Shown: positions 734 to 63,576, counted from the stretch's first letter. The stretch: 64,000 nt of DNA from Gemmatimonadales bacterium (GCA_052389555.1 JBQTHV010000015.1:1492-65491), one strand, 5' to 3'. Numbers and translations: made by a program. The notes: generated by a model from the letters alone, not told the origin.

Positions 734-830
734 GGCTATTGGTTATTGGCCATTGGCTATGGAAAAAGCTCTGCGGGTTAGGCCGTTCAACCAATAGCCA
801 ATAGCCAATAGCCCTCAATAGCCAATAGCC
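734..830. repeat. heptamer-periodic inverted repeat (CTATTGG arm / CCAATAG arm)
   Basis: ggctattggttattggccattggctatgg (734-762) faces ccaatagccaatagccaatagccctcaatagccaatagcc (791-830). It abuts the stop of the upstream minus-strand gene. Confidence 0.85.
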
Positions 831-16450: not shown

Positions 16451-16622
16451 CACGACGCGGACGCTCGGAAGCCGGTGCGATGCCGGCGCGGCCCCGCCAC
16501 TGTGAGGGGCGCAGCAACCCCTGCTCACCCGCCACTGGGCAACTGGGAAGGCGAGCGGGAGCCCCAAGCCAGGAGACCTCCTGCGTCGTGTCACCCGCAG
16601 TTCCCTCGGGGGAGGGGTCAGG
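16451..16622 (+). promoter_or_regulatory. cobalamin (B12) riboswitch
   Basis: P1 helix cacgacgc (16451-58) pairs with gcgtcgtg (16583-90). Core ggaagccggtgcgatgccggcgcggccccgccactgt. B12 box aagccaggagacctcctgc. Downstream ccctc/gaggg helix can mask the SD before the GTG at 16623. Confidence 0.85.
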
Positions 16623-23028: not shown

Positions 23029-23135
23029 GAGCTATCAGCTAACAGCTATCAGCTATCAGCTAGCCGAACTGTACCGTCCAAGGGACGAGCTGATAGCTGA
23101 AGACTGATAGCTGATAGCTGTTAGCTGATAGCTCG
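23029..23135. repeat. heptamer-periodic hairpin (AGCTATC / CTGATAG arms)
   Basis: 23029-23058 is the exact reverse complement of 23105-23134, a 30-bp stem. It lies 16 nt upstream of the clpB ATG. Confidence 0.9.
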
Positions 23136-32041: not shown

Positions 32042-32140
32042 GGGGAATCGGGAGTAGGGAACGGGGAATGGGGAATGGGACCTCGCCTTCCCCCATGATC
32101 GCGATTCCCCAAGCCCCATTCCCTATACCCCGGCTTTTTT
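32042..32140. repeat. heptamer-periodic imperfect hairpin (GGGGAAT/CGGGAGT arm vs TTCCCCA/TTCCCTA arm) followed by a T-tract
   Basis: ggggaat cgggagt agggaac ggggaat ggggaat ... attcccca agcccca ttcccta tacccc, then ggctttttt. It ends at the first base of tRNA-Ser. Confidence 0.7.
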
Positions 32141-32227
32141 GGACAGGTGTCCGAGTGGCTGAAGGAGCCGGTCTCGAAAACCGGTATACCCGCAAGGGTA
32201 TCGTGGGTTCGAATCCCACCCTGTCCG
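32141..32227 (+). tRNA. tRNA-Ser (anticodon CGA)
   Basis: Hand-folded cloverleaf. Acceptor ggacagg/cctgtcc, anticodon loop cuCGAaa, long variable arm, T-arm gtggg-ttcgaat-cccac. No encoded CCA. Confidence 0.93.
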
Positions 32228-32230
32228 TCG

Positions 32231-39536: not shown

Positions 39537-39624
39537 GGACAGATGGCCGAGCGGCTTAAGGCGCACGCCTGGAGAGCGTGTATACCTCAAAAGGGTGTCG
39601 AGGGTTCGAATCCCTCTCTGTCCG
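39537..39624 (+). tRNA. tRNA-Ser (anticodon GGA)
   Basis: Hand-folded. Acceptor ggacaga/tctgtcc, anticodon loop cuGGAga, long variable arm, T-arm gaggg-ttcgaat-ccctc. Confidence 0.93.
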
Positions 39625-39636
39625 TGGGGCAGGAGC

Positions 39637-39792
39637 AGCTATCAGCTATCAGTCTTCAGTCTCAAGTCTTCAGTCATGAGTCAGCGGTAGGCAACTTGAG
39701 ACTGACGACTGACGACTGATAGCCGATAGCCGATAGCCGATAGCCGATAGCTGATACCTGATAGCGAAGAGGTATCTGATAGCTGATAGCTG
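39637..39792. repeat. compound heptamer-periodic hairpin array (AGCTATC/AGTCTTC arm vs CTGACGA/CCGATAG/CTGATAG arm)
   Basis: About 22 heptads in near-continuous 7-nt register between tRNA-Ser(GGA) and the msrP ATG (39802). Confidence 0.9.
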
Positions 39793-45331: not shown

Positions 45332-45478
45332 ATGAAACCGACTCACAAGGCTCCGGCGGAAACGCCGGGGCCGTCGGCCTTTGAGCGGATGCGAGAACTG
45401 ACGCGACGGATCATCAATGTCCCGAAGTCTGAGATTCCTCCCAAACCAAAAGCCAAACAAAAGAGGCGACGAGCCTAG
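45332..45478 (+). CDS. possible 48-aa basic protein inside the IS
   Basis: SD gaaagaggaag 3 nt before the ATG. MKPTHKAPAETPGPSAFERMRELTRRIINVPKSEIPPKPKAKQKRRRA. The 3' end overlaps the RelA/SpoT stop by 4 nt, convergently. Too short for the ORF track. Confidence 0.35.
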   Translation: MKPTHKAPAETPGPSAFERMRELTRRIINVPKSEIPPKPKAKQKRRRA

Positions 45479-46605
45479 GCAAGAGCCTCCCGCAATTCGG
45501 CCATAAAGGCGGTCGTATCAGCGTAGAAACTCGGGTAAGCCTGCCTTAGAGCGCGTATTGAGGCCACCGATACCAATACGGCGTGTCTTTGCGGATCGCG
45601 GATGATCTGCTTTTCAATCTCGGCATAATCAGTCTCCGCCTTCTGTTGCGCGTCCAATGTGTACTGATGCCAGAACAATTCGCCCTTCGCAATATCAAGC
45701 GTTAGCAGGAAGGTGCGGGCCCCTGAAATCTTCTCGGGCCGCGATTCAGTAACGATCATGCTCCAGGCAGAGAATCGCTTCTCAACCTGCAAGGCCCCCG
45801 CAATCTGACGTAGCTCTTTCTTAATAGCCGTCACCCGCAGGGGAAGGCCTGGCGGAACTGGTCGCCGCTCTTTGAGGGCGAACACTCCGCCCATCAATAA
45901 GAAAAAACGCTTCCACGGCTCTTCCCCCACGCTCGATTTCAACGCCTGAGTAGTGAATAGATCCACCGTCTCAACTGCCGTTGCCCATTCGTGCTGGAGG
46001 CGAGATCGAAGCTGCACTTCAACTCTCAAGCCGTGGAACTTGTCGTATTTCGCGTATTGGGTATGATATTTGGAGACTAGGTGGATTCCTCGGTATCCGT
46101 CAGCTTTGGGATTCTTGATGTAATCGTATCTTTCAATCAACTCCGATTGGTGCTTCTGGCGACGTTCGGAAGCCCGACGATAGGCTTCATCTAGACGTTC
46201 GACCATTTGATTGGTTCGGAGAACGGCTCGGCAACCACCAATATCCTGCATCTGGGCAAGTTTCATCCTGCGAAAACGTCGCAGTTTTGTTAGTATGGCG
46301 ATCATCCTCTTGAGCCGTTGGGAAATGAGAGCTTCCCTGTCAACCTTCCTCGCACGGTCCATCAATGTGATGCGAGCTGAAAGCAGCGGCCAACTATGGG
46401 ATGAGCGCCAATTGCTGATGATCTTGAATGCCTCATCTGTCTTGCCTAGGAACTGGTGGAACTCATCTTTGCTATCAAAACCTGGGGGACGACTCTCCAG
46501 CTCGTGAGCCAAGTAATCGCCCGCTGCGTCAACCTTGGTACGGGAGAATTGCGGAGTGACCCAAGCCACCTCAGACAGCCTCGGACGAGGGGGAGCGATC
46601 AACAT
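45475..46605 (-). CDS. RelA/SpoT-domain nucleotide pyrophosphokinase (small alarmone synthetase / toxSAS-like) with about 160-aa C-terminal domain of unknown function
   Basis: Synthetase motifs RLKRMIAILTKL, MQDIGGCRAV, ADGYRGIHLV and EVQLRSRLQHEWA. No hydrolase (HD) domain. About half G+C by eye. Confidence 0.85.
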   Translation of the reverse strand: MLIAPPRPRLSEVAWVTPQFSRTKVDAAGDYLAHELESRPPGFDSKDEFHQFLGKTDEAFKIISNWRSSHSWPLLSARITLMDRARKVDREALISQRLKRMIAILTKLRRFRRMKLAQMQDIGGCRAVLRTNQMVERLDEAYRRASERRQKHQSELIERYDYIKNPKADGYRGIHLVSKYHTQYAKYDKFHGLRVEVQLRSRLQHEWATAVETVDLFTTQALKSSVGEEPWKRFFLLMGGVFALKERRPVPPGLPLRVTAIKKELRQIAGALQVEKRFSAWSMIVTESRPEKISGARTFLLTLDIAKGELFWHQYTLDAQQKAETDYAEIEKQIIRDPQRHAVLVSVASIRALRQAYPSFYADTTAFMAELREALA

Positions 46606-46745: not shown

Positions 46746-47681
46746 ATGAAGGACTCGAAGTCACACGACTTGTCCGACATCGAGAGTTTGCTGGCCGGCC
46801 GCCAGCAGTTGACCGAGTGGCTCGAGCGCCTGGAGGAGGCTGGGTCGCGAGCGCCCGAATCGGTGCGTACCAAGGTACGGGCCGACTACCAGGGACGTCT
46901 GGCCCAGGTGGTGAACCAGCTCGGCGCTCATCGGGACGTGATCAACACGACCCTCGAGGGGCTGCGAGCGCAATCTCAAGAAACCAACCAGCTTCGGCGG
47001 GAGCAGCTCGAAGTCCGGGCTGAAGCAGAGCTTCGCCACGCAGTCGGCGAATACAGCGACGATCAGTGGCAACTGATTGATCTGGAGACGACCGGGCGAA
47101 TCAATGGCCTGGAGCACGAGCTGGAGAAGCTCGCCGAGGAAATCCGGCGGCTCGCTGAAGTTTATGCGCTGATCGCGCCGCCGCAGCCGGAGCAGCGCCC
47201 CGCTGCCTCCGTCGAGCGCCGGACGCCGAGCGGCGACTTACCGAGCGCGGAGCGCCGAGCGCCGAGTGTCGAGCCGCGAGTCTCCGAACCCGAGTCGCCG
47301 CCGGTCCCCACCGGTCCCCGACTGGTGAGCGACGATGGGCTGACTCCGGCTCCGCGTCCCGAGGCGCCACGATTTGTGCCTCGTGGGGCTGTCCCGGCAG
47401 CTCGGGAGCCCGCTCAGCCACGCGCCCCGCGAGTTACCCCGATGCCGGCGCCTGCCAGTCAGGGCGCCGACGACGAGCTCGCGTTTCTGCGCTCGGTGAA
47501 TGTCGAAATCGAAGCGTCCCCTCACCCGGCCGCCACGAATCAGGAGGGGAGCGGGCAGGAAACGGAAGTGCGGAAGGGCCCCACGGCCGCCAAGACCCTG
47601 AAGTGCGGCGAGTGCGGTTCGCTCAACCGGCCGACCGAATGGTACTGCGAGCGGTGTGGGGCGGAGCTGGCCGCGGTCTGA
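46746..47681 (+). CDS. coiled-coil / low-complexity protein with C-terminal zinc ribbon
   Basis: N-terminal heptad-rich helices, a Pro/Arg/Glu-rich middle and C-terminal KCGECGSLNRPTEWYCERCG. Confidence 0.7.
   Translation: MKDSKSHDLSDIESLLAGRQQLTEWLERLEEAGSRAPESVRTKVRADYQGRLAQVVNQLGAHRDVINTTLEGLRAQSQETNQLRREQLEVRAEAELRHAVGEYSDDQWQLIDLETTGRINGLEHELEKLAEEIRRLAEVYALIAPPQPEQRPAASVERRTPSGDLPSAERRAPSVEPRVSEPESPPVPTGPRLVSDDGLTPAPRPEAPRFVPRGAVPAAREPAQPRAPRVTPMPAPASQGADDELAFLRSVNVEIEASPHPAATNQEGSGQETEVRKGPTAAKTLKCGECGSLNRPTEWYCERCGAELAAV
47212..47296. repeat. heptamer-periodic CCGAGNN tract inside the coding region
   Basis: tcgagcg ccggacg ccgagcg ... ccgagcg ccgagtg tcgagcc gcgagtc. Encodes SVERRTPSGDLPSAERRAPSVEPRVSEPES. 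Confidence 0.6.
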
Positions 47682-47689
47682 CTTGAAGG

Positions 47690-47735
47690 GGAGGTAGTAA
47701 GCAGGAGGTAGTAAGCAGGAGGTAGTGAGCAGGGA
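47690..47735. repeat. 14-mer tandem repeat (GGAGGTAGTAAGCA x3), left arm of a split hairpin
   Basis: 47704-47735 pairs 30/32 with 48203-48234. Confidence 0.85.
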
Positions 47736-47823
47736 CCTCGACTGCGATGATCTGGACCAGCTAGAGGGTTCTTTGCGTTAGAACGGTTACTCATCCGCCC
47801 TGGCCGCGCAGTAGCTTGGCTGC

Positions 47824-48191
47824 ATGGCCACCCTGATTCGAACCTACCAAGATTTAATCGTCTGGCAAAAATCGATGGATCTTGCCCTGATAGTGCTCAG
47901 GTTGGCTGCACGCTTGAAGGGTGCGCGCTCTTATGTGCTTGCTGATCAGCTCGAGCGCTCGGCCATCTCCATCCCTTCAAATCTGGCGGAAGGTCATGGA
48001 CGAAGATCTCGTGCCGAGTTTCGGCGATATGTCGCCGTTGCGAATGCTTCCCTGCGGGAGTTGGAAACCCAGCTGAGCTCCTGAGGCGGTACTGCCCGCG
48101 GGTGGCCCAAAGAGTCAGTCGGATTCTCGTGGGCACTGATGAGATAGGACGGATGCTCAATACCCTGCATCACCGCCTGGGGACTTCATAA
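47824..48191 (+). pseudogene. four-helix-bundle protein gene (23S rRNA intervening-sequence protein family), frameshifted
   Basis: Frame 1 gives YQDLIVWQKSMDL...IPSNLAEGHGR...ASLRELETQL, then a stop. The family C-terminus (..ILVGTDEIGRMLNTLHHRL) continues in frame 3 to TAA at 48189-48191. Confidence 0.8.
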
Positions 48192-48202
48192 CGCCCTCGA
48201 AG

Positions 48203-48234
48203 TCCCTTCTCACTACCTCCTGCTTACTAACTCC
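48203..48234. repeat. right arm of the split GGAGGTAGTAAGCA hairpin
   Basis: tcccttctcactacctcctgcttactaactcc is the reverse complement of the left arm with 2 mismatches. Confidence 0.85.
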
Positions 48235-48240
48235 TAGTCG

Positions 48241-48489
48241 CTAGCCCCCACGCTTCCGCGAGATCCGACTCTTGAGACGCGCCGCCGTGTTAGGGTGGAT
48301 CAACCGTTTCCGAGCGGCGCGGTCGAGCAGGCTTCCGAGTCCGCGCAGGGCGGCCCCCTGCTCCCGGGCGCCGACCGAGGCGCGAGCCTTCTTCAGGGCG
48401 GTGCGCAGCGCGCTCCGCTGACTCTTGTTTCGCGCCGTACGCGCCCGGGTCTGGCGCATCGCCTTTTTCGCAGATTTCGTCCTCGGCAC
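48241..48489 (-). CDS. rpsT: 30S ribosomal protein S20
   Basis: MPRTKSAKKAMRQTRARTARNKSQRSALRT.. GTG start with SD gaaagg. Confidence 0.95.
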   Translation of the reverse strand: MPRTKSAKKAMRQTRARTARNKSQRSALRTALKKARASVGAREQGAALRGLGSLLDRAARKRLIHPNTAARLKSRISRKRGG

Positions 48490-48508
48490 TTGGCAGCCTT
48501 TCGGTTGG

Positions 48509-48598
48509 GAGCTAACAGCTATCAGCTATCAGCTATCAGTCGTCAGTCATCAGTTCTACTGCCAAGCTGATAGCTGATAGCTCATAGCTGATAGCTAC
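48509..48598. repeat. heptamer-periodic hairpin (AGCTATC / CTGATAG arms)
   Basis: gagctaacagctatcagctatcagctatcagtcgtcagtcatcag ... agctgatagctgatagctcatagctgatagctac. It lies 20 nt upstream of the rpsT start. Confidence 0.9.
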
Positions 48599-48715
48599 TA
48601 ACGGCGGCTAAGTTTAGTCACCGCAATACGTTGACGCAAGGGAACCGGCCCCCTTAAACTTGAGTCTCTCCCCACTCGGGATCCCGACCTGACCGACTTC
48701 ATTCTCGCCCTCCCG

Positions 48716-58742: not shown

Positions 58743-60431
58743 ATGCGCATAACAATCCTGCCGGATTCAGTCGCAAACCAGATCGCTGCCGGCGAAGTCG
58801 TGGAGCGGCCTGCCTCGGTCGTGAAAGAGCTGATCGAGAACGCGCTCGATGCCGGCGCGCGGCACCTGCGAGTCGAGCTGGAGCAGGGCGGCAAGACCCT
58901 CATCGCGGTGAGCGATGACGGGTGCGGCATGGATCCTCAGGACGCGGTCCTGGCCCTCGATCGACACGCCACGAGCAAGATCGCGCGCGCGAGCGACCTG
59001 ATCGGCGTGCGCACGTTCGGGTTTCGAGGCGAAGCCCTTCCCGCTATCGCGTCGGTCTCGCGCTTCACGATGACGACTTCCGACGGCGGTGAAGCGACCG
59101 AGGTCATGGTGACCGGAGGCCGCCTGGAGCGGGTGGAGCGGGCGGTGCGCCAGCGCGGAACCACCGTGATGGTGCGGGGGCTCTTCTTCAACACGCCGGC
59201 CCGCCGCAAGTTCCTGCGCTCGGTGCCGTCCGAGAACCGCGCGGCGACCGAAGCGGTGACGGTGCTGGCCCTGGCCCATCCCGAAACGGGATTCGAGCTC
59301 ATCGTTGACGGGGCCACCCGGCTCGCGGTTCCCCCGGATCAGGATGAGCCCGCACGGCTCGTCGGGGCGTGGGGCGACCACCTGGCCGGCACCCTGGTAC
59401 CGGTACGCTATGCCGCCGGTGCGGTGCAGGTCGCGGGTTATGTGCAGCGGCCGGGCGACGCCGCACCCACCGGCCGGCGGGTCCAACTCTTCGTCAACGG
59501 CCGGCCCTTCCGCGATCCGTTCCTGATCCGTGCGGCCGAAGCGGGTTATCGCTCCGCCATTCACCCGGGGGACCGGCCCAGTCTCCTCCTGCATCTCTCG
59601 GTGGATCCGTCCGAGGTGGATGTGAACGTTCACCCTGCCAAACTCGAAGTCCGGTTCCGGGACCGGATCGCGGTCGAGCGCACCGTCGAGGAAGCGGTGC
59701 GGGATGCGCTGGGCCAACTCGAAGCGGCGGTGCCGGTGGGTGAGTGGAGACCGGCTCCTCGGGAATCGGGAATCGGGAGTCGGGAATCGGGAACGGAAGG
59801 GGCGACCCTCGACTTCCCGACTCCCGACCCCCGACTCCCGACTTCCGATGAGAGCCGCTTCGAGCCTCGGGTGACCCAGCTTTTCTCGAGCTATCTCACC
59901 TTCGAGGGCCCCGAGGGCCTCGTCATCGTGGATCAGCACTCCGCCCACGAGCGGGTGCTCTTCGAAGAGGTGATGCGGCACCTCACTAACGGGGGGATCG
60001 CCGCGAGCCAGCGGCTCTTGTTTCCCGAAACCGTGGAGCTCACCGACGAAGAGCTCGAGGCGGTCGAGCGGCATCGCGAGGCGCTGGAAGCGGTCGGGTA
60101 CCAGGTCGCGCCGTTCGGCGGCCGGACCGTCGTGATCCACGCGGTGCCGGCACCGCACCCGCGGTTCGAGGCGGTCGCGTGTTTTCGCGAGCTGGTCGCC
60201 GATCTCGCGCGGGGCCGCTTCGGGGGATGGGCCAACCGGCTCGAGCGGTTCGCGGCGACCTACGCGTGCCGGGCCGCGGTAAAGGCCGGGACGCCGCTGT
60301 CCGATTCGGAGATGCGGGCGCTGCTCTTGCGTCTCTTCGAAACCAAGTTGCCGCCGCACGACGTGCACGGCCGGAGCACCATCGTCCAACTTCCCCGGGT
60401 GGAGCTGGAGCGCCGGTTTGGGCGACAATAA
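58743..60431 (+). CDS. mutL: DNA mismatch repair protein MutL
   Basis: GHKL ATPase motifs AAGEVVERPASVVKELIENALDAG, DDGCGM and GFRGEAL, plus the C-terminal dimerisation domain. Confidence 0.95.
   Translation: MRITILPDSVANQIAAGEVVERPASVVKELIENALDAGARHLRVELEQGGKTLIAVSDDGCGMDPQDAVLALDRHATSKIARASDLIGVRTFGFRGEALPAIASVSRFTMTTSDGGEATEVMVTGGRLERVERAVRQRGTTVMVRGLFFNTPARRKFLRSVPSENRAATEAVTVLALAHPETGFELIVDGATRLAVPPDQDEPARLVGAWGDHLAGTLVPVRYAAGAVQVAGYVQRPGDAAPTGRRVQLFVNGRPFRDPFLIRAAEAGYRSAIHPGDRPSLLLHLSVDPSEVDVNVHPAKLEVRFRDRIAVERTVEEAVRDALGQLEAAVPVGEWRPAPRESGIGSRESGTEGATLDFPTPDPRLPTSDESRFEPRVTQLFSSYLTFEGPEGLVIVDQHSAHERVLFEEVMRHLTNGGIAASQRLLFPETVELTDEELEAVERHREALEAVGYQVAPFGGRTVVIHAVPAPHPRFEAVACFRELVADLARGRFGGWANRLERFAATYACRAAVKAGTPLSDSEMRALLLRLFETKLPPHDVHGRSTIVQLPRVELERRFGRQ
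59759..59848. repeat. heptamer-periodic hairpin (CGGGAAT arm / TTCCCGA arm) in frame inside mutL
   Basis: tcgggaatcgggaatcgggagtcgggaatcgggaac ... cttcccgactcccgacccccgactcccgacttccga. Encodes RESGIGSRESGTEGATLDFPTPDPRLPTSD. Confidence 0.85.
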
Positions 60432-61347
60432 GGTCCCGATCATCGTGGGACCGACCGCCATCGGCAAGACCGCCGTGGCGCTGGCGCTCGCGGCCCACCT
60501 GCCCATCGAGGTCATCTCGGCCGACTCGCGCCAGATCTATCGCCGCCTCGACATCGGCACCGCGAAACCCACTCGCCGTGAGCGCCAACGGGTGCCGCAC
60601 CATGGGATCGATCTGGTCGAGCCGGGCACGCGGTACAGCGCGGGTCACTTCGCGCGCGAAGCAGCGGGATGGATCGCCGAAGCAAGACGCCGGGGCCGGT
60701 TGCCGGTCGTGGTTGGGGGTACCGGACTCTATATTCGCGCACTGGCTGAAGGTCTGTTCGAGGAACCCCCGCTCGACCCCGACCGACGCCGGGCGCTGGA
60801 ACACTGGATCGGAAGCCTGGAGCCGGCCGATCTCGTGCGCTGGGCGGGCCGGCTCGATCCCGGTTTCGCGGGTGGGGGGCGCCAGCGTGCCGTGCGGGCG
60901 ATCGAGATCGCGCTGCTCACGGGCCGACCCCTCTCGGGATGGCACCGGCGGACTCCGGCCGCGGCGACACTCACGCCGTGGTACCTGCGGCTCGCCGCGC
61001 CGCGAGCGGTGCTGGCGCAGCGCATCCGCACCCGCACAGAGGAGATGTTGCGCCGCGGGTTAATCGAGGAAGTCGCTGCGGTGCTGAGCGAAGGGCTTCC
61101 GGCTGACGCGCCGGGCCTCACCGGCGTCGGGATTCGCCAGGCGGTCGACTATCTCCACGGCCGGCTCTCCCGCGAGCGGGTGGCCGATGCGATCGTCACC
61201 GCGACGCGCCAGTACGCCAAGCGGCAGGAAACCTGGTTTCGGCACCAGCTTCGCGGTGCCAGGCTGACGCTCGACGCGACTCAACCGGTCGAGGATCTCG
61301 CCCGGTCTATTGCGGATGCATGGAAGGAGGTAGTAAGCAGGAGGTAG
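60418..61347 (+). CDS. miaA: tRNA dimethylallyltransferase
   Basis: P-loop GPTAIGKT plus SADSRQIYR..DIGTAKP. TTG start overlaps the mutL 3' end. Confidence 0.93.
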   Translation: MGDNKVPIIVGPTAIGKTAVALALAAHLPIEVISADSRQIYRRLDIGTAKPTRRERQRVPHHGIDLVEPGTRYSAGHFAREAAGWIAEARRRGRLPVVVGGTGLYIRALAEGLFEEPPLDPDRRRALEHWIGSLEPADLVRWAGRLDPGFAGGGRQRAVRAIEIALLTGRPLSGWHRRTPAAATLTPWYLRLAAPRAVLAQRIRTRTEEMLRRGLIEEVAAVLSEGLPADAPGLTGVGIRQAVDYLHGRLSRERVADAIVTATRQYAKRQETWFRHQLRGARLTLDATQPVEDLARSIADAWKEVVSRR

Positions 61348-61435
61348 TAAGTAGGGAAGTCGAGGAGCCAGCCCGCCCTCGTGAGCAAGCTGGGCTCGGT
61401 TTGTCCCTACTCACTACCTCCTGCTTACTACCTCC
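61326..61435. repeat. hairpin of GGAGGTAGTAAGCA units (32-bp stem, 1 mismatch, 46-nt loop)
   Basis: 61326-61357 ggaggtagtaagcaggaggtagtaagtaggga pairs with 61404-61435 tcccctactcactacctcctgcttactacctcc-type arm. The left arm supplies the miaA stop. Confidence 0.9.
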
Positions 61436-61447
61436 TAAAGAGACGAT

Positions 61448-62572: not shown

Positions 62573-63450
62573 CCCTGACCGGCTGGGATGGCTTGCTCAT
62601 CGGGCTGGTCCAGGGTCTTACCGAGTTCCTTCCGATTTCGAGCTCGGGCCACCTGGTGCTCGCGGAACGGCTGGTGGGCTACGAGCCACGCGGGGTGTTC
62701 GTCGAGGTGGCGGTTCACGTCGCCACGCTGCTCTCGGTGGTCATCGCCTATCGGGGAAGGATTGCCGAGTTGCTCGGCGATCTGCTTACCAGGAGGCGCG
62801 GCGGGTGGCGCTACATCGGGCTCCTGCTCCTCGCCTCCGTTCCGGCCGGGATAGCCGGCATCCTGGGGCGTGACTACTTCGAGCGGACCTTCCATTCGCT
62901 GCCCGCGTTAGGCTGGAACTTCCTGATCACGGCCGGCTTGCTCTGGAGTACCCGCTATATCCCTCGGCGCTCGGCGCTCGGCGCTCGTGGCTCGGCGCTT
63001 GGCGCTCGAGAGCCGAGGGCCGAGAACCGAGAGCCGAGTACCGACGTGCCGAGTGCCGAGAGCCGAGCGCCGAGCCACGTTCCGACCATCCGCCAAGCGC
63101 TCATCATCGGCCTCGCCCAAGCCGTCGCCATTCTGCCCGGGGTATCCCGCTCGGGTGCCACCATCACCGCCGGGTTATGGACCGGACTTGCTCCAGCCCA
63201 GGCCGCCGAGTTCTCGTTCCTCATGTCGATCATCGTGATCGCGGGATCGGGCTTGCTCGAAGCCCGCCACCTGGTCCAGGGCACCCAGGACGTGTCGTTC
63301 GGACTCGCCGTCGCATTCGTCGCCGCATTGCTCGCCGGGATCGCCGCGATCAAGCTGCTCGTGCTGCTCCTTCGGCGCGGCCGGTTTCACGTCTTCGCGC
63401 CGTATGTCGCAGTGCTCGGCGTGCTGTGCTTGCTGTGGTTTGCGTTCTGA
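62569..63450 (+). CDS. uppP: undecaprenyl-diphosphate phosphatase
   Basis: [14 protein letters not shown] and [12 protein letters not shown] motifs. Contains a repeat-derived insertion of about 38 aa. Confidence 0.9.
62963..63076. repeat. heptamer-periodic hairpin (CTCGGCG arm / CCGAGNN arm, centre CTCGAG) in frame inside uppP
   Basis: ctcggcg x3 ctcgtgg ctcggcg cttggcg ctcgag agccgag ggccgag aaccgag agccgag ... Encodes [37 protein letters not shown]. Confidence 0.85.
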
Positions 63451-63576
63451 AGGGAGTAGGGAATAGGGAGTAGGGAATCGGTATGGACAGCGAAGATCGG
63501 GTATTTGGGGATCTGGGTTCGGCTGCCGGGAGTGCGCCCGTCAGCCCTACCCCCTACTCCCTATCCCCTACTCCCT
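63451..63576. repeat. heptamer-periodic hairpin (GGGAGTA/GGGAATA arm vs CCCTACT/CCCTATC arm)
   Basis: 63451-63478 pairs 25/28 with 63549-63576. The loop of about 66 nt contains the candidate birA ATG. Confidence 0.85.

Follow-up and report, generated by a model that had tools for sequence, protein, structure and literature searches.

Proteins of the four-helix-bundle (4HB) family PF05635 were first found encoded in the intervening sequences (IVSs) of 23S rRNA. A stretch of 64,000 nucleotides from a Gemmatimonadales bacterium (GCA_052389555.1, JBQTHV010000015.1:1492-65491; hereafter the window, with positions counted from its first letter) raises the question of why such a gene should lie in the loop of a long hairpin between two protein-coding genes, one for a zinc-ribbon protein and the other, rpsT, for ribosomal protein S20. 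A preliminary description of the window had seen an IVS-like element outside rRNA and had offered three readings: the hairpin arms delimit a cassette in which the gene travels, the loops of such hairpins are insertion targets for the gene, or the hairpin family as a whole is related to IVS-type stem-loops. In the present study, about 130 relatives gave a strongly supported regularity: in Acidobacteriota, Bacteroidota, Clostridia, Proteobacteria, Planctomycetota, Verrucomicrobiota, Cyanobacteria, Patescibacteria and Gemmatimonadota and in phage contigs, 4HB genes usually lie between inverted arrays of heptamers that move with the gene. The element of the window is probably, though far from certainly, a decaying copy of such a portable cassette, of the IVS type but outside rRNA.

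The hairpin and the gene in its loop

The complementarity originally reported for the arms, 30 of 32 positions between 47704-47735 and 48203-48234, was confirmed, and an inverted-repeat search extended the pairing to arms of 58 nt (47689-47746 and 48192-48249) that are 81% complementary and separated by 445 nt. The left arm contains three copies of the 14-mer GGAGGTAGTAAGCA, starting at 47690, 47704 and 47718, each composed of the heptamers GTAGTAA and GCAGGAG, and the right arm contains two units and a decayed third, which reaches into the stop codon of rpsT. Inward, pairing continues through non-repeat segments, GGGACCTCGACTGCG on the left with CGCCCTCGAAGTCCC on the right, and outward it reaches into the decayed third unit. 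The bracket score of the cassette (defined in the next section) is 24.7 standard deviations above 30 shuffles. When 47680-48255 was folded as RNA, the terminal stem was closed in both the minimum-free-energy and the centroid structures (-249 kcal/mol, z = -5.9). A local hairpin of 8 bp, GGGACTTC...GAAGTCCC (48180-48206), lies across the stop codon of the 4HB gene; thus, the inner right stem has two possible partners, the end of the gene or the left inner stem. No target-site duplication was found at the outer flanks CTTGAAGG and TAGTCGCT, and a sequence scan gave no convincing promoter or terminator consensus in the cassette or its leader, such as the short GC-rich stem with a T run expected of an intrinsic terminator.

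The preliminary description had also traced the arms to the same units as a compact hairpin with a 46-nt loop (61325-61436), and this proved correct. The arms of the compact hairpin (61325-61357 and 61404-61436) are 97% complementary and consist of the cassette's units, the four arms of the two elements have 33 near-invariant columns in common, and both elements contain the inner motif GGGAnnTCGAGG, exact copies of which occur in the window only at the inner ends of three hairpins (48195, 59807 and 61354). A common insertion scar, for which a comparison of 61358-61403 with the interior of the cassette had been suggested, was not found: only the inner motif GGGAnnTCGAGG / CGCCCTCG is common to them, with no clean deletion junction.

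The gene in the loop (47824-48191) was correctly assigned to its family, but its reading frame is broken near 48075, which had been overlooked. After repair of the frame, the protein scores 101.1 bits against PF05635 (cut-off 33.8, E = 5e-29, profile positions 1-105 of 106) and 97.5 bits against TIGR02436 (cut-off 24). The gene of 368 nt is not divisible by 3; frame 1 from 47824 ends after 86 aa at a TGA (48082-48084), and the C-terminal 37 residues are in a different frame, up to the TAA at 48189-48191. When the two parts are joined at 48075/48076, they yield a 122-aa protein that aligns without gaps to 12 homologs and contains the conserved PSNxAEG motif. The break looks like a deletion of 1 nt between 48075 and 48076, and because of this apparent deletion the loop gene would be either a pseudogene or the product of a 1-nt assembly error at that base. 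An intact open reading frame (ORF) of about 120 aa is thus lacking, the ORF as found being 86 aa, and the public protein collection contains only the 86-aa product (P0001, from a 70.5-kb contig). There is no second 4HB gene in the window. Among solved structures, the nearest are XCC0516 of Xanthomonas campestris (2GSC, E = 1.8e-15) and 2RLD, with five chains deposited for each. The PADLOC models of defence systems gave zero matches.

Bracketing of other four-helix-bundle genes

A scan with one genome per species gave 80 further 4HB loci, with identities of 38-52%, from Acidobacteriota, Planctomycetota, Bacteroidota, Clostridia, Proteobacteria, Chloroflexota, Verrucomicrobiota, Cyanobacteria, Patescibacteria, Spirochaetota and Gemmatimonadota. 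For each gene, the upstream 250 nt were aligned to the reverse complement of the 200 nt downstream, and a gene with a score of at least 28 was regarded as bracketed. By this test, 56 of the 80 genes were bracketed, as compared with 2 of 432 position-shifted controls from the same loci and 5 of 249 other ORFs from the same loci and the window; on viral contigs, the count was 26 of 40. The central idea of an IVS-like gene in a stem-loop outside rRNA holds, and as a property of the whole gene family. Two observations had been named beforehand as telling against it, namely that the arms are confined to this one instance or that pairing is not conserved in relatives; instead, other copies have arms, and relatives keep the pairing while the sequence of the unit changes. 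The use of Avd genes linked to diversity-generating retroelements (DGRs) as an arm-less control was abandoned, the arm-less viral loci being not clearly DGRs.

The arms are nearly always tandem arrays with a period of 7; a few have a period of 8, and periods of 6 or 9 were never found. Period-8 arms occur at L038, L056, L061, L072, L075, L079, L093 and L117, and those of L061 are composite, about 130 nt long. Arms have a median length of 30 nt; the median distance is 23 nt from the end of the left arm to the start codon and 4 nt from the stop codon to the beginning of the right arm. The units vary between loci, even within a single genome, with a weak consensus (T)YAGKDRT in common: YAG is present in 43 of 64 units (shuffles: mean 18.5, maximum 27). 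The polarity is constant: upstream, the 5' arm is G-rich in 52 of 62 units, downstream the 3' arm is C-rich in 36 of 43, and in gene-less hairpins the G-rich arm is likewise 5' (18 of 21). Stops in all frames were considered as a reason for a period not divisible by 3. On the sense strand, stop triplets occur in 22 of 43 units of the 3' arms (CTGA or CTAA), where 8.7 are expected, and in 27 of 62 units of the 5' arms, where 26 are expected. Given the 7-nt period, the stop triplets of the 3' arm place stops in all three frames after the gene, although their enrichment may be no more than a consequence of the T-YAG core. The gene-less arrays of these genomes often have the unit of the cassette arms (L021, L022, L043, L044 and L049).

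On two viral contigs (L170:1489-1851 and L172:1489-1860), the 4HB ORF lies within an ORF for an Eco57I-type methylase of about 825 aa (PglX-like), on the same strand and in another frame; the host ORF is open across it, and these loci have weak heptamer arms or none.

Co-inheritance of arms and gene

In related pairs of cassettes at non-syntenic sites, nucleotide homology runs from the outer end of the upstream array as far as the downstream array, and the flanks beyond are unrelated. For example, L023 2429-2882 and L054 2423-2888 are 76.7% identical over arms and gene, the homology block between L006 2454-2893 and L023 2454-2890 equally comprises arms and gene, and in L027/L044 and L066/L067 homology is likewise confined to them. 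Since homology in such pairs corresponds to arms plus gene and ends at the outer arm ends, the arms travel with the gene. P0002, the closest homolog of the loop protein (67% identical), is encoded between the genes for an ABC-transporter ATPase and a sigma54 regulator, with arms of the GGAGGTAGCGAGGA type. This site (L001) is unrelated to that in the window; the two cassettes are 76% identical in the arms (47689-47734 and 1815-1859) and 68% identical in the gene, with no match outside arms and gene. With these arms and the non-syntenic homology blocks, travel as an arm-bounded cassette is the best supported of the three readings offered earlier. In syntenic sets (L001/L002/L004, the ten contigs encoding P0020, L034/L064 and L038/L079), cassette and arms are inherited vertically. 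The more alike two 4HB proteins are, the more alike are their arms.

The arrays themselves are dynamic. Among the P0020 contigs (L205-L214, e.g., L205:1861-2000), which have identical protein and flanks, the upstream array, with units GGGAGGA/GGGACTA/GGGAAGA, differs by 14, 28 or 56 nt and the downstream arm is constant; the differences are strain-level gains or losses of whole heptamer units. At L215, at least 15 CTCACCA units stand on the downstream side only. That cassette (L215:2001-2396, also L216-L224) is located in a bacteriophage exclusion (BREX) locus between pglZ and brxL, with arms that abut the start and stop codons and a downstream array grown to about 15 or more units. As to recent transposition, an identical protein in several contexts was not found, P0020 and P0071 each occurring in one conserved context, and transposases were not among the neighbours seen (ABC ATPase, sigma54 regulator, PglZ, BrxL, zinc-ribbon protein and S20), no whole-genome survey having been made.

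The orthologous site in relatives

When metagenomes were scanned with the zinc-ribbon protein, 80 loci (33-52% identity) were obtained, 68 of them with enough sequence. In all 68, a convergent rpsT comes after the zinc-ribbon gene; the spacer is 0-239 nt, as compared with 559 nt in the window, and none (0 of 68) has a 4HB gene in it. The gene is a gain of the window's lineage, and its presence is sporadic, as is typical of an IVS. The spacers of the relatives contain a GC-rich stem flanked by runs of A and T, which resembles a bidirectional terminator, and in about 20 of the 68 (14 by a strict scan) this stem is wrapped in inverted heptamer arrays. The wrapping units vary by relative (CAGTGGT, CAGTAGG, TAGGGAG, TAGTCGT, CAGTCCT, CAGAGGT, CAGGGAG, GCTATCG and others), and both arms remain complementary in each wrapped relative despite the differing unit. 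The terminator core is absent from the loop in the window.

Proposed explanation and alternatives

In the explanation that we favour, a cassette is made up of a tandem-heptamer arm rich in G, a short leader, the PF05635 gene and a second heptamer arm, C-rich and complementary to the first, and in this lineage the whole unit, arms included, would have arrived between the convergent zinc-ribbon gene and rpsT. In any transcript across the region, the arms would form a paired stem of 40-58 bp, the loop of which is the ORF. By analogy with the IVS of Coxiella, such a stem would permit excision of the cassette from the host RNA, possibly by processing of the RNase III type, or insulation against it; furthermore, since the start codon adjoins the stem, the stem may gate translation or expression of the enclosed gene. 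The arms behave as simple-sequence repeats that gain or lose whole 7-nt units, and the many gene-less heptamer hairpins of the genome would be the same kind of element minus the gene, that at 61325-61436 sharing the arms of the cassette. The data show the anatomy, the association of the family with heptamer arms, the common inheritance of arms and gene, the restriction to this lineage, the changes in unit number and the frameshift; we infer stem formation in vivo, processing by RNase III, the manner in which the cassette moves and any action of the protein on the repeats.

Several observations weigh against this explanation. About 30% of the 4HB family is without detectable arms under the flank definition used, and neither a recombinase nor a target duplication nor any other means of movement was found beside the cassettes. 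In a wobble test, arm mismatches of the G.U type (68) were not in excess of those of the A/C type (82) on the sense strand; thus, there is no specific signature of selection on a sense-RNA stem, and selection at the RNA level can only be inferred. The very unequal arrays on the two sides are odd for a structure selected solely for pairing, and an RNase III substrate does not explain the weak (T)YAGKDRT consensus and the constant polarity. Polarity, YAG core and very unequal arrays point to something beyond generic double-stranded RNA.

The arrangement might be thought a chance one, with two independent one-armed arrays around an unrelated small gene, since heptamer arrays are common in this genome; however, arms that are complementary at 30 of 32 positions and have a 14-mer and an inner non-repeat stem in common, a score 24.7 standard deviations above shuffles and recurrence in 56 of 80 genome and 26 of 40 viral loci make the probability of coincidence negligible, and the comparative data refute it. 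A more serious possibility is that the gene alone moved, into the loop of a heptamer hairpin already present between the zinc-ribbon gene and rpsT, such loops being preferred landing sites. Gene-less hairpins do exist in the same spacer of about 20 of the 68 relatives (14 by the strict scan), they outnumber the gene-bearing hairpin in the window by about 10 to 1, and rRNA IVSs take the place of hairpin tetraloops (PMC4990558). We nevertheless consider it unlikely: the arms of the cassette resemble those of the hairpin at 61325 and of the nearest 4HB homolog, whose site is unrelated, rather than any hairpin of the orthologous site, the homology of non-syntenic copies in other lineages takes in the arms, and the loop lacks the GC-rich terminator found there in relatives.

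If the arms acted as DNA, as a cruciform or a single-strand hairpin used by host recombination or replication in the manner of integron attC sites or of repetitive extragenic palindromic (REP) elements with their REP-associated tyrosine transposases (RAYTs), the RNA stem would be incidental. Arm mismatches without G.U bias, changes by whole units as in replication slippage, orthologous-spacer arms that stay complementary while their units differ, which fits concerted templated change, and the GTAG/YAG of the units, which recalls REP elements, agree with this proposal. However, it leaves the tight fit of the ORF between the arms unexplained, and neither a recombinase gene nor a target duplication was seen next to any cassette; we regard it as still less likely than the movement of the gene alone. 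Somewhat less improbable than either, though doubtful, is the proposal that the heptamer arrays are binding sites of the 4HB protein, an oligomeric, nucleic-acid-binding relative of Avd, which would regulate its own gene through the flanking arrays and act in trans on gene-less hairpins; this is compatible with the cassette. It would account for an association specific to the 4HB family (70%, as compared with 2% for other ORFs), for arrays with a weak consensus and fixed polarity, for gene-less arrays that often share the unit of the cassette (L021, L022, L043, L044 and L049), for the rise of arm similarity with protein similarity, and for the GGGAATC array over the start codon of XCC0516 in a published Xanthomonas supplement. 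Against it, units vary widely within genomes, the window combining five or more types of unit with one broken gene, 330 kb of hairpin-bearing relatives are without any 4HB gene, and the covariation of protein and arms is equally expected from co-inheritance.

Other heptamer hairpins of the window

The coordinates of the cassette, its neighbours and the other hairpins are given in Table 1. Among the roughly 54 genes of the window are about 11 heptamer hairpins or arrays, which lie in spacers of the tandem, convergent and divergent kinds and beside both tRNA-Ser genes, with at least five types of unit (AGCTATC, GGCTATT, GGGAATC-like, CTCGGCG and the 14-mer). These have the properties of bacterial tandem heptamers, that is, 7-nt units in intergenic positions at multiple loci, often as convergent inverted pairs. 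The cassette hairpin is the only heptamer-type hairpin of the window with a long loop, the other loops being 19-76 nt, and Rfam has no family for these hairpins. We conclude that the cassette is tied to the genome-wide heptamer hairpins.

Table 1. Position of the cassette, neighbouring genes and heptamer hairpins in the window
Feature	Position	Strand	Remark
Zinc-ribbon host gene, 311 aa, C-terminal zinc ribbon	46746..47681	+	Stop codon 7-8 nt before left arm
Left (5') arm	47689..47746	+	Three GGAGGTAGTAAGCA at 47690-47733; inner non-repeat GGGACCTCGACTGCG at 47732-47746
Leader, left arm to start codon	47747..47823	+	77-88 nt; family median 23 nt
4HB gene, N-terminal part, 84 codons, frame 1	47824..48084	+	Premature TGA 48082-48084; frameshift between 48075/48076
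4HB gene, C-terminal part, 37 codons (LLRRYCPRV...HHRLGTS), shifted frame	48076..48191	+	TAA 48189-48191
Right (3') arm	48192..48249	+	Inner stem CGCCCTCGAAGTCCC 48192-48206; two reverse-complement units 48207-48234; decayed third unit 48235-48249, overlapping rpsT stop codon
rpsT (ribosomal protein S20)	48241..48489	-	Convergent with zinc-ribbon gene; last codons overlap outer end of right arm
Gene-less hairpin, GGCTATT / CCAATAG	734..830	.	
Gene-less hairpin, unit AGCTATC	23029..23134	.	31-nt arms, 100% complementary
Gene-less hairpin, unit GGGGAAT	32042..32130	.	Directly upstream of tRNA-Ser
Gene-less hairpin/array, units CAGCTAT, CAGTCTT, CTGATAG	39636..39792	.	Directly after tRNA-Ser
Gene-less hairpin, unit AGCTATC	48504..48602	.	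Between rpsT start and divergent gene at 48716
Gene-less hairpin, unit TCGGGAA/GGGAGTC	59759..59848	.	Inner end with GGGAAGTCGAGG motif as in 61325-61436
Gene-less sibling hairpin	61325..61436	.	Same 14-mer arms, inner GGGAAGTCGAGG motif, 46-nt loop; ends 11 nt before next gene
Heptamer hairpin, CTCGGCG / CGAGAGC	62963..63075	.	
Gene-less hairpin, unit AGGGAGT/AGGGAAT	63451..63576	.	96% complementary

Of the two tRNA-Ser genes, that at 32140-32229 has its heptamer hairpin upstream and that at 39537-39624 has it downstream. The AGCTATC hairpin at 48504-48602 is in the leader or promoter region of a divergent spacer, not in a terminator position. By a crude ORF map, the hairpins at 59759-59848 and 62963-63075 lie inside long ORFs, which may be an artefact of ORF calling at 67% G+C. 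Other features of the window are a cobalamin riboswitch at 16467-16577 (Rfam RF00174, 68 bits), a gene for a 376-aa protein of the RelA/SpoT synthetase type (PF04607, E = 3.6e-13; 45475-46605, - strand) just upstream of the zinc-ribbon gene, and, within the zinc-ribbon coding sequence (47211-47278), a degenerate repeat with periods of 7 and 29 (Tandem Repeats Finder, 66-70% matches).

Implications

To our knowledge, the function of the ORF in the IVSs of 23S rRNA has been an open question since 1993, and we know of no accepted role for the abundant heptamer repeats of cyanobacteria, Xanthomonas and others. The packaging of 4HB genes in heptamer arrays, family-wide, seems to be undescribed; it joins these two questions and makes the older one, that of the IVS ORF, experimentally testable. 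For annotation, it means that a 4HB protein gene that stands in the spacer of an operon and has flanking repeats of 30 nt is an inserted cassette and not a member of the operon.

A tentative and rather improbable extension is that 4HB proteins and tandem-heptamer hairpins are two halves of one widespread, undescribed system. If so, gene-bearing hairpins would be its autonomous copies, and gene-less hairpins, including the cyanobacterial short tandemly repeated repetitive (STRR) sequences, the GGGAATC pairs of Xanthomonas and the hairpins of the window, would be non-autonomous or target forms; the classical ORF-bearing IVSs of 23S rRNA would be cassettes that landed in rRNA, and the 4HB protein would bind or propagate 7-nt arrays.

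Comparison with known systems

The loop protein belongs to a four-helix-bundle fold family distantly related to that of Avd, the accessory protein of DGRs, and PF22296 (bAvd) is annotated on its more distant homologs. However, the frame-repaired protein scores only 19.9 bits (E = 7e-4) against the Avd model NF033474, far under the cut-off of 80, and the neighbours of the gene encode the zinc-ribbon protein, S20 and the RelA/SpoT-like protein, with no adjacent reverse transcriptase or template/variable repeats. Integron cassettes have a single attC, located at the 3' end, together with an integrase and an attI platform. Like these, the 4HB cassette is a small, apparently promoterless ORF bounded by an imperfect, hairpin-forming inverted repeat and portable across unrelated contexts, but its ORF is enclosed by two repeat arrays complementary to each other, and there is no integrase.

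The cassette and the hairpin at 61325, as a gene-bearing and a gene-less version sharing their ends, are comparable to autonomous elements and their MITEs (miniature inverted-repeat transposable elements), or to RAYT genes and REP elements or bacterial interspersed mosaic elements, in which short palindromes are likewise multicopy and intergenic. Unlike in these systems, no transposase or target-site duplication was seen with the cassette. Furthermore, terminal repeats common to the copies, as in MITEs, are lacking: arm sequence is not conserved between copies, even within one genome (e.g., L031 and L033, and the five unit types of the window), and only the 7-nt period, the weak YAG core and the polarity are kept.

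The STRR sequences of cyanobacteria are bacterial tandem heptamer repeats. With these and with the repeats of Xanthomonas and Beggiatoaceae, the arrays of the window have in common 7-nt units, intergenic location, multiple copies and frequent inverted pairs able to form stem-loops. In Xanthomonas, 70-75 convergent inverted pairs of GGGAATC arrays have been reported (PMC4692102), and the supplement of that paper gives array #15 of Xcc as overlapping the start codon of XCC0516, without comment there. XCC0516 is the crystallised 4HB family member that is the best match of the loop protein among solved structures. The heptamer of Beggiatoaceae is TAACTGA (PMC4679880), and the unit CAGTTAT of L022 is the reverse complement of a rotation of it. 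The searchable text of the two papers treats these repeats as G-quadruplex or regulatory motifs and contains no link to the 4HB family, whereas the repeats of the window cassette are the arms of a gene cassette; no paper linking the gene family with heptamer repeats was found in the open-access literature.

The closest parallel is with the ORF-bearing IVSs of 23S rRNA in Leptospira and Coxiella burnetii, where an ORF of the same PF05635 family fills the loop of a long terminal inverted-repeat stem. The IVS of C. burnetii has 428-444 nt and a terminal stem of 28 bp, in the middle of which RNase III cuts, with the ORF in the loop (PMC4990558); the window cassette, of 561 nt, is in a similar size class. 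The distribution of both is sporadic and apparently horizontal. The suggestion that the hairpin family is related to IVS-type stem-loops is thus borne out in anatomy, including the terminal-repeat stem that encloses the ORF, but not in location: no rRNA was found in the window by Rfam, and neither the window nor any of 83 4HB loci (L001-L083) is similar to the E. coli 23S sequence, so that an insertion in helix 9, 25 or 45 of 23S rRNA does not apply. Unlike the IVSs, the cassette is located between two protein genes in convergent orientation, has arms of 44-58 nt built as tandem heptamer/14-mer arrays, and contains a frameshifted gene. Because none of these loci is in a 23S rRNA gene, the rRNA location that gave the family its name would appear, from the loci compared, to be the exception.

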